From the IMG/VR virus record IMGVR_UViG_3300025129_000005: a stretch of 64,000 bases of DNA; one strand, written 5' to 3'. Below are positions 291 through 8,263 of the stretch, in pieces. The notes below the pieces were generated by a model that saw only the letters and a list, made by a program, of their open reading frames with translations, was not told the DNA's origin and searched no databases. The position numbers were made by a program, and so were the translations under genes. Within the stretch, counting starts at the first letter, position 1. Every line of letters starts with the position of its first letter. The DNA comes from a virus (taxonomy: Duplodnaviria; Caudoviricetes).

Positions 291-481
291 AATCAAAAAA
301 GAGGTATGACAATCAAAAGAAAAAGAACTTTGAAGTGACTCCTGATATCTTAAAAAAGCTACAAGATTCTTTGAATGATAACATAAAACCAGATTTCAAG
401 GAGAAAACTGATGATAAAAAGAAAGTCCCCAACAAAAAAAGGAAACCATCTAACAGAGGTGTTGAACGCAATAAACACTAA
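287..481 (+). CDS. Small basic hypothetical protein
   Basis: ATG overlaps upstream stop; Lys-rich ORF. Confidence 0.35.
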   Translation: MKSKKRYDNQKKKNFEVTPDILKKLQDSLNDNIKPDFKEKTDDKKKVPNKKRKPSNRGVERNKH

Positions 482-770
482 AACCCCTTGTAATTATAAT
501 CCGAAAGAGGTTAGTGCATGGGTTATCTCATTGTTTCTGTCAGAAGATCCAGAACTTATTGAAATTGTTAATAAAATAAATCAATATCATTTTTCCCTTG
601 ACGATAAACTAATATTCCGGTATTATGTATCAAAGATTCCAAAAAAGAAGAGATTTATTAAATTTACAAAAAAATCCAAGGAATCAAAAGATAATGAGAA
701 AGTTAAATCTCTCATGGAAACTTACGGAGTCTCAAAAAGAGAAGCACTTCTTTCAATAGGGAAAGGGTAG
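411..770 (+). CDS. Clamp loader small subunit (T4 gp62-like); true start probably downstream of 411
   Basis: 'IPKKKRFIKFTKK...VKSLMETYGVSKREAL' typical of gp62-like proteins; synteny. Confidence 0.65.
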   Translation: MIKRKSPTKKGNHLTEVLNAINTKTPCNYNPKEVSAWVISLFLSEDPELIEIVNKINQYHFSLDDKLIFRYYVSKIPKKKRFIKFTKKSKESKDNEKVKSLMETYGVSKREALLSIGKG

Positions 771-2395: not shown

Positions 2396-2403
2396 AAAAA
2401 GTG

Positions 2404-2432
2404 TTGACATACCGAGGACGAGTTGATAATAT
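2404..2432 (+). promoter_or_regulatory. Sigma70-like promoter of the Ubl gene
   Basis: TTGACA(2404)-17 bp-TAATAT(2427). Confidence 0.6.
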
Positions 2433-2509
2433 GTTCCTGTCTTAAGCGAAACAATAATTTTTATCCTCATGGTGAGGAAATTCACACTTCTCTTGAAAGG
2501 AGATTTAAT

Positions 2510-2728
2510 ATGACTGAAAGTACTACTCTTACCATTAATGGTTCCACCAACACTATCGAAGCCGGTTCTTCTTTTCGCGATACTGTTGTTAACGCTGCAC
2601 GTAACGCAGGTCTTGGCAAGTTCCGGGTTATTCTGAACGGTTCTGAAATTGATCCTGCAGATGCACCAGAATCCCTTAACCCCAGCATGTCTCTGGAAAT
2701 TCGCCCTTATGAAGTGGCTGGTGCTTAA
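2510..2728 (+). CDS. Ubiquitin-like (beta-grasp, ThiS/MoaD-like) modifier, 72 aa, ending ...EVAGA
   Basis: SD GAAAGGAG then ATG 2510; 'LTING...FRVILNGSEI...SLEIRPYEVAG-A' follows the ThiS/Ubl pattern; upstream of E2/E1/JAB. Confidence 0.8.
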   Translation: MTESTTLTINGSTNTIEAGSSFRDTVVNAARNAGLGKFRVILNGSEIDPADAPESLNPSMSLEIRPYEVAGA

Positions 2729-2748
2729 CCGAGTATAACCATTTAATC

Positions 2749-2780
2749 GAGTTGGGTCAATCAAGACCCAACTCTTCTTT
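2749..2780 (+). terminator. Intrinsic terminator after Ubl
   Basis: Perfect 10-bp stem GAGTTGGGTC/GACCCAACTC then TTCTTT. Confidence 0.75.
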
Positions 2781-2799
2781 ATAATTTTAAACTTTACTG

Positions 2800-2828
2800 T
2801 TGACAATCCCAATCATTAAATATAAGAT
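2800..2828 (+). promoter_or_regulatory. Sigma70-like promoter of the E2-like gene
   Basis: TTGACA(2800)-17 bp-TAAGAT(2823). Confidence 0.55.
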
Positions 2829-2863
2829 GTTCATATCGGTTTGATTTACAGAAAGGAATTAAA

Positions 2864-3769
2864 ATGGCAGTGTGGGATGTGAATATCGCTGAATCGATTA
2901 AAAGTGACATAGATTCAGTATTGGATGATATCAATATTGATAATATTAAATCCGAGGGTATGACCGTTCGTATCGGTGGTAGACTTGTTAAATTAGAATT
3001 CACCGAAGAAACTTCTCTCCCGGAAGATGAAATTAGGGCTGAATATTCAGCAAAACTTACTGAAAAACTTCAAGCCATAAAAAATGTTGTTAATAAAAAG
3101 ATCTCTGAAATGTCTTATATGGTTGAACAGAATCGTATTGATTTTGAGGAAAAAGAGCGAAATCTTCAAGTACGCTTGTCTAGTGCAAACTTGATGCCGG
3201 ATATCACGTATGAACAAGCAAAAGCCGGACTGTCCGTGGTCAAGGGTCACCCAAGTTACAGAGAAAATGATGTTTTAACTTGGTTATATCAAGGTGTTTA
3301 TTGGCCAAAATTTGTTGATGGTGAGCCGATTGATCCGAAATATGCAAAACGTCTCGTTTCTCCGGTAACACTGGTAATTGTTACTGTTAAAGATAAAGTT
3401 CGTTCTGTAACGGTTTGTAAAACAATCGGTCTTTCCAAATTTAAACATTATCATTCAATGGGTAATAGTTCGGATTGTTGGGGTCAATGGAAAATCCCGT
3501 CAAATTGGTCTGAACCTAAAGATATTCTATCTATTGCCCGCCATGCTATGGGGGTTCTGGAAAACGTTAATACTCAGTCTCCGGGTAATCGTAACCCGGA
3601 TGGTCTTCCCCGACTGAATACTTTGTCACAACACGTTCTTAGGGGTGAAGCAGCTGTTAACGTTGAATATGTGACTTCACAATCCGATGATAGGGCTGGT
3701 ATTGATCGTAACACTGACAGGGGTGATCAAGGAACTCGCGGTTCGGTAGGTCAAGTCTGGTCAACATAA
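2864..3769 (+). CDS. E2/UBC-like conjugating enzyme with N-terminal coiled coil
   Basis: 'FKHYHSMGNSSDCWG' resembles the E2 HPN...C active site; 'VLENVNTQSPGN' resembles the UBC C-terminal LLxxPNxxSPAN motif; between Ubl and E1. Confidence 0.65.
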   Translation: MAVWDVNIAESIKSDIDSVLDDINIDNIKSEGMTVRIGGRLVKLEFTEETSLPEDEIRAEYSAKLTEKLQAIKNVVNKKISEMSYMVEQNRIDFEEKERNLQVRLSSANLMPDITYEQAKAGLSVVKGHPSYRENDVLTWLYQGVYWPKFVDGEPIDPKYAKRLVSPVTLVIVTVKDKVRSVTVCKTIGLSKFKHYHSMGNSSDCWGQWKIPSNWSEPKDILSIARHAMGVLENVNTQSPGNRNPDGLPRLNTLSQHVLRGEAAVNVEYVTSQSDDRAGIDRNTDRGDQGTRGSVGQVWST

Positions 3770-3777
3770 TTTCAAAA

Positions 3778-3805
3778 AAAAGAGGGTTTGAAAAGACCCT
3801 CTTTT
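3778..3805 (+). terminator. Intrinsic terminator after E2-like gene
   Basis: AAAAGAGGGT / ACCCTCTTTT inverted repeat. Confidence 0.65.
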
Positions 3806-3842
3806 AATTTCAGAACCTCTCCGATGGATGGTCAAAAAGTGA

Positions 3843-3871
3843 TTGACATATAAAAATTTGTGTGGTAGTTT
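3843..3871 (+). promoter_or_regulatory. Sigma70-like promoter of E1-JAB
   Basis: TTGACA(3843)-17 bp-TGG.TAGTTT, extended -10. Confidence 0.55.
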
Positions 3872-3907
3872 AGCATTATCTTTGGGCATAAAAGAAAGGA
3901 ATTTATT

Positions 3908-4498
3908 ATGAGTTTTTATGATCGGCAGGATTTGATTGATGGTATTAATAACAAAATTAAAGTTTGTGTAATCGGGGCTGGCGGTATCGGTTTTCATGTC
4001 GCTAAAGGTCTTGCAATGTCAGGTGTCGAAACAATTTATGTTTTTGATCCTGATACCATCGAAGAATCAAACCTTAACCGTCTTGATGTAACAGTTGATG
4101 TTATTGGGAAAAATAAAGCTGATGTGGTCAAGCAGGTGGTAAAATCTCTTCGTCCGAACTGTATGGTCAAATCGTTTCCGTTTCCACTGAAAGATCATAC
4201 CTATCCTAAAGGTGTTGACTGGATTGTTGACTGTACTGATAATCATAAAAGTCAGTTAGAAAACCAACGTATGGCTCAAGAAAATGAAGCACGGTATCTT
4301 AAAGTGGGGTATGACGGGACCAGGATGTCGATCAATGATCGAGTCGCAACATGGGATTCAGGAGAAACCCAAGATGGGTATCGTATAACCCCGAGTTGGG
4401 CACCACCAGCTATCATCGTTGCGTATCTGGGTGTGGCCAAAATCCTCAAATATCACAATGGCGAAATGGGTTGCGATTTATCAGAAATATATCGATAA
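3908..4498 (+). CDS. ThiF/MoeB/E1-family adenylyltransferase (minimal E1)
   Basis: 'VIGAGGIG', 'DPDTIEESNLNR', 'GKNKAD', 'VDCTDN'. Confidence 0.92.
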   Translation: MSFYDRQDLIDGINNKIKVCVIGAGGIGFHVAKGLAMSGVETIYVFDPDTIEESNLNRLDVTVDVIGKNKADVVKQVVKSLRPNCMVKSFPFPLKDHTYPKGVDWIVDCTDNHKSQLENQRMAQENEARYLKVGYDGTRMSINDRVATWDSGETQDGYRITPSWAPPAIIVAYLGVAKILKYHNGEMGCDLSEIYR

Positions 4499-4514
4499 TA
4501 AATTGTGAGGTATT

Positions 4515-5603
4515 ATGGGGAAGAAAAGAAAATTAAAAAAAAAACTAAAAAAGCATAAGAAGGGATTTTATATGTTTGGTATTAAAGAAAATAAAGCACT
4601 TGAACTTATTTCAGATAAAGACTTTGATGATCTGATCAAACTCCATGATAAGGGCGGGGCATTTAACGTAAAAGAATCTAAATTCAATTGTTGGGATTCG
4701 GGTATTAAGATCATCAAAACTTGCGGTCATATAAATGTGTCTAAGTATCACATCGAATTTCACCTTCTTGCACATAAAAAAATTGAAAAATTAAAGAAAG
4801 TTTATCCTAATTTGGAATGGTTGGCGTACTTGGTTGGATCTGTTGACCACGATAATCATAAAGTATCTGTTACTGACTTGGTTATTCCTGATTCTCAAAA
4901 GGTTACCGGCACTAGCGTTTATAACGTTGAATATAATTGGGAATCCTTGGCTGATAATAAAGTTATAATTGGTGTTATCCATAGTCATAATACCATGGGA
5001 GCATTCTTCTCAGGGACAGATGATGCTTATATCAACCAAAATCATGACGTATCAATTGTGGTCTCTACTGCTGCAGGTCGTGAAATCAAAGCGCAAGTCA
5101 GGGTTAAAACTCTTTGTAATTCTTACATTCTTGCCGAAAACATTGAGTTTTCAGTAAAATACCCCCAACTTTTTGATGAAAGTGAATTTGAGTCCGAACT
5201 TTCAGAGAAAATAATTTCTCATTCTTCAATTAGTAGCTGTAGAGGTATTATAGGTCGAAGCTTTTTGAATAATTTCACTGGTTATGATACCGAAAACAAT
5301 GATTTTCTTGATCTTGAAGAACTTGAATATGAATATCCCGAAAAAATGACCAAACTAGATATTCGTGATGAACTTCTTTTCTATTATGAAGAAGAAGATG
5401 TTGATGAGATGATTAGAGATGGATCAGCTGTCAATGAACTTAAAATTATTCGTAAAAAAGTAAAAGAGAATTCGGATAAAGGCTTTTTGGATCAAGAGGA
5501 TGGCTGGTCTTCGGTAGACTTTGAAGAAGAATTTGAAGAAGACGAGGATGAGGACGAAGATTACGAATTTGATGATAAATTTGATTATTTTAAGTTGTTG
5601 TAG
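4515..5603 (+). CDS. JAB/JAMM/MPN metalloisopeptidase with acidic C-terminal tail
   Basis: 'EWLAYL' Glu plus 'HSHNTMGAFFSGTDD', matching HxHx7SxxD. Confidence 0.9.
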   Translation: MGKKRKLKKKLKKHKKGFYMFGIKENKALELISDKDFDDLIKLHDKGGAFNVKESKFNCWDSGIKIIKTCGHINVSKYHIEFHLLAHKKIEKLKKVYPNLEWLAYLVGSVDHDNHKVSVTDLVIPDSQKVTGTSVYNVEYNWESLADNKVIIGVIHSHNTMGAFFSGTDDAYINQNHDVSIVVSTAAGREIKAQVRVKTLCNSYILAENIEFSVKYPQLFDESEFESELSEKIISHSSISSCRGIIGRSFLNNFTGYDTENNDFLDLEELEYEYPEKMTKLDIRDELLFYYEEEDVDEMIRDGSAVNELKIIRKKVKENSDKGFLDQEDGWSSVDFEEEFEEDEDEDEDYEFDDKFDYFKLL

Positions 5604-5652
5604 ATGATTTCATAGATAAGACTCAAGAATATAAAAATCCTCCGATGTAATT

Positions 5653-7173: not shown

Positions 7174-7559
7174 TGAGATTTGAACGATACATAAACGAAG
7201 GTGATGGTGATTTTGACTTAAATAAACGTATCGTTTTTTCATGGAAAGGTCATAAGGTAGTTAATACCGAGCATGGTAAGCAACGCATCAAACAACGTAG
7301 TGATATTACGGACTTTCAAATGTTGACAATGTTCAAAAATGCTATTAAGAAGATTGAAAGTAAATCCGTAAAGATAGGGGAAAAAATTGTTTTTTGGTCT
7401 AAAACATTAGGACAAGCTTTTATAGCAAAGATAGATGATGTTAAGGATTTGATATTACTTACGTTCTTTCCGAGACACAAGAAACCGAGTGGAGTAAATG
7501 ATCCATATCAACGAGAAGTTGTTATAGAAGGCGAACATTTAAGAATAGTGGAGATATGA
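7173..7559 (+). CDS. Leader-bearing protein, possible RelE/ParE-like RNase fold
   Basis: MRFERYINE leader; 'TEHGKQRIKQR' resembles the H-x-x-x-R-x-x-x-R motif of DUF4258/RelE-like toxins. Confidence 0.45.
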   Translation: MRFERYINEGDGDFDLNKRIVFSWKGHKVVNTEHGKQRIKQRSDITDFQMLTMFKNAIKKIESKSVKIGEKIVFWSKTLGQAFIAKIDDVKDLILLTFFPRHKKPSGVNDPYQREVVIEGEHLRIVEI

Positions 7560-7564
7560 AATTA

Positions 7565-8263
7565 ATGAGGCTTGAGCAGTATATAACCGAAAGCATTAAC
7601 GATAAGGGTATTTTCAAGGCCATATTCATGGCAGGTTCGCCGGGATCAGGAAAGTCGTTTGTAAGAAAAAAATTGTCAGGTGGGTATGAACCCAGAGTCG
7701 TAAATACCGATAAATTCACAGAATTCTTCGGGGGGTGGAATGGTTTTAGTGAGAAGATAAAACTTCTTAATAATAATCAATTATTGTTATATTTAAATTC
7801 TATGTTACCTCTTTGGATTGACGGAACTTCTGGTAATAGAAACAATCTCATGACAAGAGAAGGTCTTTTGTCAGGGATGGGATACGATACTGGTATGATA
7901 TGGGTCAATACTGACCTTGACGAAGCAGTTAAGAGGGCACAGGAGCGCGAAGCCCATGGCGGTAGACATGTTGATATCCCTTGGTTAAAAGAAACTTACG
8001 AAAAAATTCAGAAGATGAAATCATTCTATATGACTCGTTTTCAATGGTTCTTAGAGGTTGACAATAATACTGGACAATTAACTGATGAAGTGGTACAAAA
8101 TCTATACTCAAAAACACTTCCATTTTTTGGGGGACCAGTGAAAAACCCACATGGGCAAGAAATTATAAATACTTTAAAAGAGATGGGTGGAAAATACCTT
8201 ACGGATATGGAAGAATATGATATGAAGTTTATTCAAAATAGAACAAAAGCGTGGTTTACGTGA
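7565..8263 (+). CDS. P-loop kinase (zeta-toxin/AAA_33-like) with leader
   Basis: 'MAGSPGSGKS', 'VNTD', 'IDGT', 'AVKRAQER'; MRLEQYITE leader. Confidence 0.75.
   Translation: MRLEQYITESINDKGIFKAIFMAGSPGSGKSFVRKKLSGGYEPRVVNTDKFTEFFGGWNGFSEKIKLLNNNQLLLYLNSMLPLWIDGTSGNRNNLMTREGLLSGMGYDTGMIWVNTDLDEAVKRAQEREAHGGRHVDIPWLKETYEKIQKMKSFYMTRFQWFLEVDNNTGQLTDEVVQNLYSKTLPFFGGPVKNPHGQEIINTLKEMGGKYLTDMEEYDMKFIQNRTKAWFT

Follow-up and report, generated by a model that had tools for sequence, protein, structure and literature searches.

To our knowledge, the Bub work of 2024 was the first to break with the view that every E1 enzyme relies on a cysteine. The Bub E1s have no cysteine in their crossover loop, in which the sole invariant residue is a tyrosine (Y370 in BubCD, Y342 in BubBD), and exchange of this tyrosine for phenylalanine (Y370F in BubCD, Y342F in BubBD) abolishes Bub conjugation (Ye et al. 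2024, PMC11601596). The Bub E2 uses a serine, and Tyr and Ser oxyester intermediates were proposed by the authors; the Ubl~Tyr ester was never directly observed, and a BubA-BubCD adduct persisted in the Y370F mutant (PMC11601596). An AF2 model of Bub places the Tyr hydroxyl 3.7 Å from the AMP phosphate, and in the crystal structures the Tyr lies against the E2 active site, not at the adenylate (PMC11601596). In the Bil system (BilABCD), which is encoded by four separate genes for a Ubl, a Cys-E2, a JAB peptidase and an E1, the E1 (BilD) resembles eukaryotic E1s in being an IAD-AAD pseudo-dimer, and has a CYS domain of ~80 aa as an insertion, together with a zinc site of four Cys (Chambers et al. 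2023, PMC10557695).

Here we describe a phage locus with the same four separate genes as Bil, in which the E1 is reduced to a single small domain and has a conserved tyrosine in its crossover loop. A sequence-only reading of this DNA had placed a Tyr at the position of the catalytic Cys and had called a relay through a tyrosyl ester non-canonical. Such a relay is not unprecedented, since Bub already shows Tyr-dependent E1 chemistry (PMC11601596).

A four-gene cassette in a T4-like phage

The window (the whole stretch of DNA analysed, 64 kb) comes from a T4-like phage, which carries a cassette of Ubl, E2-like, E1 and JAB genes (Table 1). The four genes are separate and co-oriented, with the E1 as third gene of the block, starting from an ATG which has AAGGA in front; for the Ubl, an upstream TTG at 2423 would give a 101-aa form. 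The cassette lies downstream of a phage clamp-loader A subunit gene, and the operon is kept beside clamp and clamp-loader genes in ~30 phage contigs. For example, the contig of one relative has the order clamp loader, clamp-loader A, a 259-aa gene, Ubl, E2-like, a small open-reading frame, E1 and JAB, and the position of the JAB is the same in relatives. A DNA search of positions 2400-5650 against 50,697 phage records returned no match, tblastn of the E1 gave distant ThiF/MoeB-like matches alone (all <40% identity), and a scan of genome contigs with the single E1 protein found two weak loci (36-37% identity over residues 4-116) and no bacterial copy of the minimal E1.

The G+C content of the Ubl-E2-E1 part (window positions 2500-4500) is 0.37-0.41 vs. 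0.30-0.33 in the flanks, which may reflect a different origin of the cassette or strong coding constraints. Further downstream, at 7556-8263, a 235-aa P-loop protein has AAA_33 and Zeta-toxin-like kinase matches, and an AAA_33/Zeta-toxin-like gene is also found after the cassette region in two relatives (L001 and L015). Small Cys-rich open-reading frames of 54-100 aa, some with CxxC pairs, often occur between or beside the E2, E1 and JAB genes of relatives (e.g. L002:4045-4218, L051:3969-4271, L051:5777-5965 and L076:863-1027), with none in this window. As the minimal E1 has no zinc site of its own, a separate zinc-ribbon subunit is conceivable.

Table 1. Positions of the cassette genes, their motifs and the upstream clamp-loader gene in the 64-kb window
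Feature	Position	Strand	Evidence
Phage clamp-loader A subunit	411..767		Pfam Phage_clamp_A
Ubl, 72 aa, ThiS/MoaD-like beta-grasp, C-terminus ...YEVAG-A	2510..2728	+	20 phage-locus orthologues align
E2-like protein, 301 aa: long N-terminal helix (54-107) and diverged UBC-like core (~106-259)	2864..3769	+	25-sequence alignment, AF2 model
E2-like C205 codon	3476..3478	+	Invariant in 25 orthologues
Minimal E1, ThiF-type adenylation domain alone, 196 aa	3908..4498	+	Pfam ThiF, 3.4e-26
E1 nucleotide-binding glycine motif G23-A-G-G-I-G28	3974..3991	+	G23, G25, G26 and G28 invariant
E1 N55-L-N-R58 (SNLNR motif, arginine finger)	4070..4081	+	N55 and R58 invariant
E1 C109-T-D111 of the DCTD motif	4232..4240	+	D111 invariant; C109 outside the loop
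E1 crossover loop, residues 144-164, without Cys	4337..4399	+	Model secondary structure, column conservation
E1 Tyr158 codon (TAT), proposed catalytic or hand-off residue	4379..4381	+	Conservation, BubCD and ThiF alignments
JAB/JAMM metallopeptidase, 362 aa	4515..5603	+	Pfam Prok-JAB, 3.8e-8, above cut-off
JAB motif HSHx7SxxD, residues 156-169	4980..5021	+	

The E1 is a minimal ThiF-type protein

The E1 scores 92.3 bits against Pfam ThiF (PF00899, gathering cut-off 28.1), and the 9317 relatives that a whole-library search returned at E<1e-3 include a family of ~200-aa proteins. A 61-sequence alignment of this family has R6, G23/G25/G26/G28, G39, D49, N55, R58, K70 and D111 as invariant residues, so the E1 holds every catalytic adenylation element of the ThiF superfamily: GxGxxG, DxD, NxxR, the Lys and the Mg-binding Asp. 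The adenylation motifs of the sequence-only reading are thus confirmed, and the E1 is, on its motifs, a ThiF-type protein with the complete residue set for adenylation. It is also probably a ThiF-like homodimer, as the N-terminal YxRQ motif is invariant.

The AF2 model of the E1 is of high quality (pLDDT 93.8, pTM 0.91), with a pLDDT of only ~70 in the crossover loop. It superposes over all 196 residues on ThiF (Z 22.6) and MoeB (Z 22.5) with an rmsd of 2.5 Å, on UBA5 with Z 21.4 and a TM of 0.8, and also on the active domains of the SUMO and ubiquitin E1s. The best sequence and fold matches include ThiF, MoeB, MccB, PaaA and TcdA, and by sequence score TcdA, ThiF, UBA5 and MoeB are nearer (1e-22 to 1e-25) than BubCD (7e-15). 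The E1 remained below the NCBIfam equivalog cut-offs for ThiF (NF006395, 61.9 vs. 159 bits) and MoeB (57 vs. 266 bits), and below those of the PRTRC families (TIGR03736, ThiF, 36.2 vs. 144.75 bits; TIGR03735, protein A, 34.2 vs. 101.8 bits). In the defence libraries, its best matches were the PADLOC E1-E2 models (1e-16).

The crossover loop has a conserved tyrosine and no cysteine

The E1 has exactly four cysteines (C20, C85, C109 and C189) and no CxxC motif, as the sequence-only reading had noted. In the alignment to ThiF the first CxxC pair corresponds to a 6-residue deletion, and the phage E1 stops before the second. The crossover loop comprises 21 residues between the strand 139-143 and the helix 165-180 of the model, and none of the four cysteines lies within it. 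Its N-terminal half is variable and acidic, its C-terminal half has the conserved pattern G157-Y158-x3-P162-S163-W164-x2-P167, in which Tyr158 is the sole near-invariant side chain bearing a nucleophile. Tyr158 was present in all 30 phage loci fetched and in 139 of 151 aligned sequences (the query and 150 representatives clustered at ≤50% identity), and four of the 12 exceptions are truncated proteins. C20 and C189 are not conserved, and on this comparison no conserved cysteine is available for an E1~Ubl thioester.

The placing of Tyr158 relative to known loop cysteines depends on alignments whose loop part is of low confidence. A global profile alignment to ThiF runs without gaps from W149 to P167 (ThiF WPDNQEPERNC(184)RTAGVVGP), with Y158 on N183 and R159 on C184. 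Hhalign to MoeB was unstable, pairing Y158 with Y173 of CYRC, and was not relied on, and HMMER alignments of the E1 or the family profile to PDB chains end before the loop and do not place Tyr158. The earlier claim that Tyr occupies the catalytic-Cys position therefore holds to within one residue of ThiF C184, and the exact register of the Tyr on MoeB C187 was not reproduced. In the phage E1, the neighbouring Tyr158 may functionally replace ThiF C184.

A divergent subgroup of phage loci (L022-L027) encodes E1s of 220-250 aa with basic C-terminal tails, in which the loop motif is [EQNT]-Y-x3-PSW, the Gly being absent, and the E2-like protein ends in WGxxRR.

A sister clade with a cysteine in the loop

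Among the 150 representatives, seven E1s without the Tyr (P0050, P0081, P0104, P0107, P0110, P0137 and P0149) carry CGVTIPSW, or a near variant of it, in place of GYxxxPSW. Their Cys lies 1-2 residues upstream of the Tyr position, where no Tyr-type member has a Cys. In a tree rooted on MoeB/ThiF, these relatives form one clade (support about 90) nested among the Tyr forms, and the Tyr-to-Cys swap is therefore a single evolutionary event. Loci of this type have cassettes of the same kind: L051 and L075, the two loci examined for the E2, retain its Cys-bearing form as an upstream protein with HYH...DCWG or HYH...DCTG and have a JAB after the E1, and L076 has a Ubl ending in YDEAGR directly upstream. 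A thiol gained in the very loop segment that lost the aromatic ring would fit a nucleophile role for the residue better than a purely structural one, and the clade is a natural internal control for the E1 chemistry.

The partner proteins

The 301-aa neighbour of the E1 had no match in Pfam (including Prok-E2), PADLOC or NCBIfam. Across 25 orthologues it has the invariant residues F193, H195-Y196-H197, D204-C205-W206-G207, N236, S239, P245 and W299, and H197 and C205 are eight residues apart, the same distance as between HPN and Cys in UBC enzymes (N77 and C85 in UbcH5). In its AF2 model (pLDDT 78.7) a long helix leads into a second helix and a four-strand sheet, after which come a loop and a further helix; upon VIA re-alignment, residues 106-259 matched dozens of E2 cores over ~120 residues (Z 5-6), and a Foldseek search of the model against the PDB gave no significant match (E≥0.085). 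Because these Z scores are modest and the Foldseek E-values not significant, we regard the protein as a probable E2.

The orthologues also share an invariant Trp 2-5 residues from the C-terminus (...VW[ST]x or ...WGxxRR; the W299 codon is at 3758-3760), which follows a disordered tail with pLDDT <50 and might serve the E1 or a target as a docking peg.

The Ubl had no Pfam match, and 20 orthologues share a conserved C-terminus of [YF][DE]xAG followed by 0-6 extra residues. The JAB is presumed to trim the Ubl to ...AG and/or to strip conjugates. At the Ubl C-terminus AG, or AA or PA in a few orthologues, takes the place of GG, and many orthologues have acidic N-terminal extensions of 20-40 aa which are absent from the 72-aa form of this window. 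A complex prediction with two copies of the E1, Ubl(1-71) and, as the partner, E2-like(100-301) scored 0.24 vs. a mark of 0.32 and was counted for neither side.

Comparison with described systems

The best full-length structural matches are ThiF and MoeB (E. coli references, PDB 1zfn, 1zud and 1jw9), with which the phage E1 shares the adenylation residues, the N-terminal YxRQ and a ThiS/MoaD-like partner. It differs from them in the absence of both CxxC zinc pairs and in its neighbours, which are an E2-like protein and a JAB, whereas those of ThiF and MoeB are thiamine or molybdopterin genes. Human UBA5 (PDB 6h77/6h78) is likewise a small single domain with a short loop whose nucleophile lies towards the C-terminal side, but there the nucleophile is Cys250 and extra Ubl- and E2-binding elements follow at the C-terminus; the phage loop has no UBA5-type Cys, having Tyr158 instead, and the phage protein ends after the core. 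The gene set is that of Bil, yet the phage E1 has neither the pseudo-dimer nor the CYS domain of BilD and the canonical E1s (Uba1/SAE/NAE), and the zinc site of BilD is also absent. Cap2 of type II CBASS (PDB 7tsq, 7to3) shares the adenylation fold, but is an E2-E1 fusion which works through cysteines and conjugates a CD-NTase, not a Ubl.

For the E1 itself, the comparison indicates that Bub is the nearer analogue in function (references BubCD of Citrobacter sp. RHBSTW-00271, PDB 9ea4/9ea5/9eav, and BubBD of E. coli ZDHYS365), and that ThiF and UBA5 are nearer in fold. For the comparison set, DUF6527 genes were located in 13 of 401 alphaproteobacterial genomes, eight loci were taken and their E1-containing proteins extracted; one of these matches PDB 9ea4 (Citrobacter BubCD) at 4e-137, and in that alignment the context of Y370 reads ...ERG-Y-ITGVEEEAPSVITLN, with the chain numbering offset by two. 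Hhalign of the phage profile with five BubCD-type E1 domains, local and global, puts G-Y on G-Y and P-S-W on P-S-V, with a five-residue insertion in Bub between the two motifs. The phage E1 and Bub thus share a single adenylation domain with neither a CYS domain nor a loop Cys, a conserved G-Y near the loop end, a following helix that begins with P-S-[WV], a JAB, and a small beta-grasp Ubl ending in Gly. In contrast, the phage E1 is a standalone protein of 196 aa (the Bub E1 domain has ~285 aa), lacks the Bub beta-hairpin, has a loop of 21 residues vs. 31, and is fused to neither JAB nor E2, the four genes being separate in the relatives too, whereas Bub has Ubl-E2 plus JAB-E1 or E2-E1 fusions. 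The putative nucleophile of the phage E2-like protein is the invariant Cys205, unlike the catalytic Ser (plus His/Asp or Lys/His) of the Bub E2, and the phage system is virus-encoded, whereas Bub occurs in bacterial defence or mobile islands. With a home-made HMM, no DUF6527 (BubE) was found at E≤10 in the open-reading frames of the window or of 32 related phage loci, while positive controls were found.

A quick tree places BubCD, on a long branch, with the MoeB/ThiF outgroup. Since the phage E1 scores nearer to TcdA, ThiF, UBA5 and MoeB than to BubCD, its loop Tyr and that of Bub may be convergent. The phage family is a second loop-Tyr lineage, which either arose apart from Bub or is a very distant relative of it. 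A search for a Bub-like fused form among proteins of 344-2000 aa found MoeB-rhodanese fusions alone. The 13 DUF6527-positive genomes of the 401 sampled alphaproteobacterial species (G012-G370), together with the Caulobacter vibrioides control genome, indicate that Bub operons are fairly common in alphaproteobacteria.

A proposed relay and its alternatives

The reading we favour, holding it to be somewhat more probable than not, is that the JAB trims the Ubl, the E1 makes Ubl-AMP, Tyr158 takes the acyl group as an oxyester or mediates the hand-off in another way, and Cys205 of the E2 receives it. We infer the chemical steps, the dimer and the targets, and the sequence would be as follows. The JAB would trim the Ubl to its ...Ala-Gly end, and the E1, with ATP/Mg, would adenylate the Ubl carboxylate via its ThiF-type residues. 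As the crossover loop has no cysteine, the hydroxyl of Tyr158 would take the acyl group, giving a tyrosyl (aryl) oxyester of the kind put forward for Bub. The flexible loop would then swing the Ubl to the E2-like protein, where Cys205 would accept it as a thioester, and the E2 would hand it on to an amine of the target. Aryl esters are activated esters, and their thiolysis by the Cys of the E2 would be reasonable chemistry. More tentatively, these phages may run a hybrid relay, in which the Ubl is bound to the 196-aa E1 through a tyrosyl oxyester and then moves to the E2 Cys (oxygen-to-sulfur transfer), with Tyr and Cys interchangeable as the E1 nucleophile on one scaffold; this fuller version we think plausible, short of probable.

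The sequence-only reading had argued against a classical E1~Ubl thioester on C109, C85, C189 or C20, which the comparison supports, the loop having no Cys and the cysteines outside it being unsuitable. C109 is kept in 124 and C85 in 67 of the 151 sequences, which speaks for such a thioester, but C109 is the DCTD strand Cys also found in MoeB and ThiF and lies in the Rossmann core beside the Mg-binding Asp, C85 is too weakly conserved, C20 and C189 vary freely, and none of the four is in the mobile loop. We regard such a thioester as extremely improbable. Scarcely more credit goes to a role outside the conjugation relay, in which the E1 would be a sulfur-carrier activator of the ThiF/MoeB type (making a Ubl thiocarboxylate) or a peptide-modifying adenylase of the MccB/PaaA type, acting at the C-terminus of the small protein. 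The presence of ThiF, MoeB, MccB, PaaA and TcdA among its best matches and the ThiS/MoaD-like Ubl would suit such a role, but the E1 in every case comes with a JAB peptidase and a UBC-like protein whose Cys is invariant, a rhodanese, a desulfurase, ThiG/MoaE and a zinc site are all absent, and its scores against the ThiF and MoeB equivalogs are far below the cut-offs.

The alternative with the greatest weight, possible though on the whole unlikely, has no covalent E1 intermediate: Cys205 of the E2 would attack Ubl-AMP directly, and Tyr158 would be a lid, an E2-docking residue or a transition-state helper. The ancestral ThiF/MoeB chemistry requires no E1 thioester (a published paper notes that a covalent link between MoaD and MoeB has not been reported), the phage Cys205 is a good thiol nucleophile, and in the Bub crystals the Tyr is seen next to the E2 active site and not at the adenylate, with no Tyr ester trapped (PMC11601596). 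However, if the aromatic residue were purely structural, one would not expect Gly/Val in its place together with a new Cys 1-2 positions before it in the same loop, as in the sister clade, and the GY motif is common to the Bub E1, in which the Y-to-F exchange keeps the ring and still abolishes activity. The sequence-only reading had offered a tyrosyl ester or a direct hand-off to the E2; both draw support from the comparison, which does not separate the two.

Significance

What is new is that a phage combines a Tyr E1 with a Cys E2, and this pairing makes an oxyester-to-thioester hand-off directly testable. An E1 of 196 aa which is zinc-free and standalone is well suited to structural and kinetic work, and if the Tyr158 relay is true, no other system for trapping a Ubl~Tyr intermediate would be as small or as tractable. 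The family also indicates that E1-E2 chemistry in its smallest form is carried by bacterial viruses, not only by host defence systems, which bears on how ubiquitin-type relays may have evolved from ThiF/MoeB adenylases.
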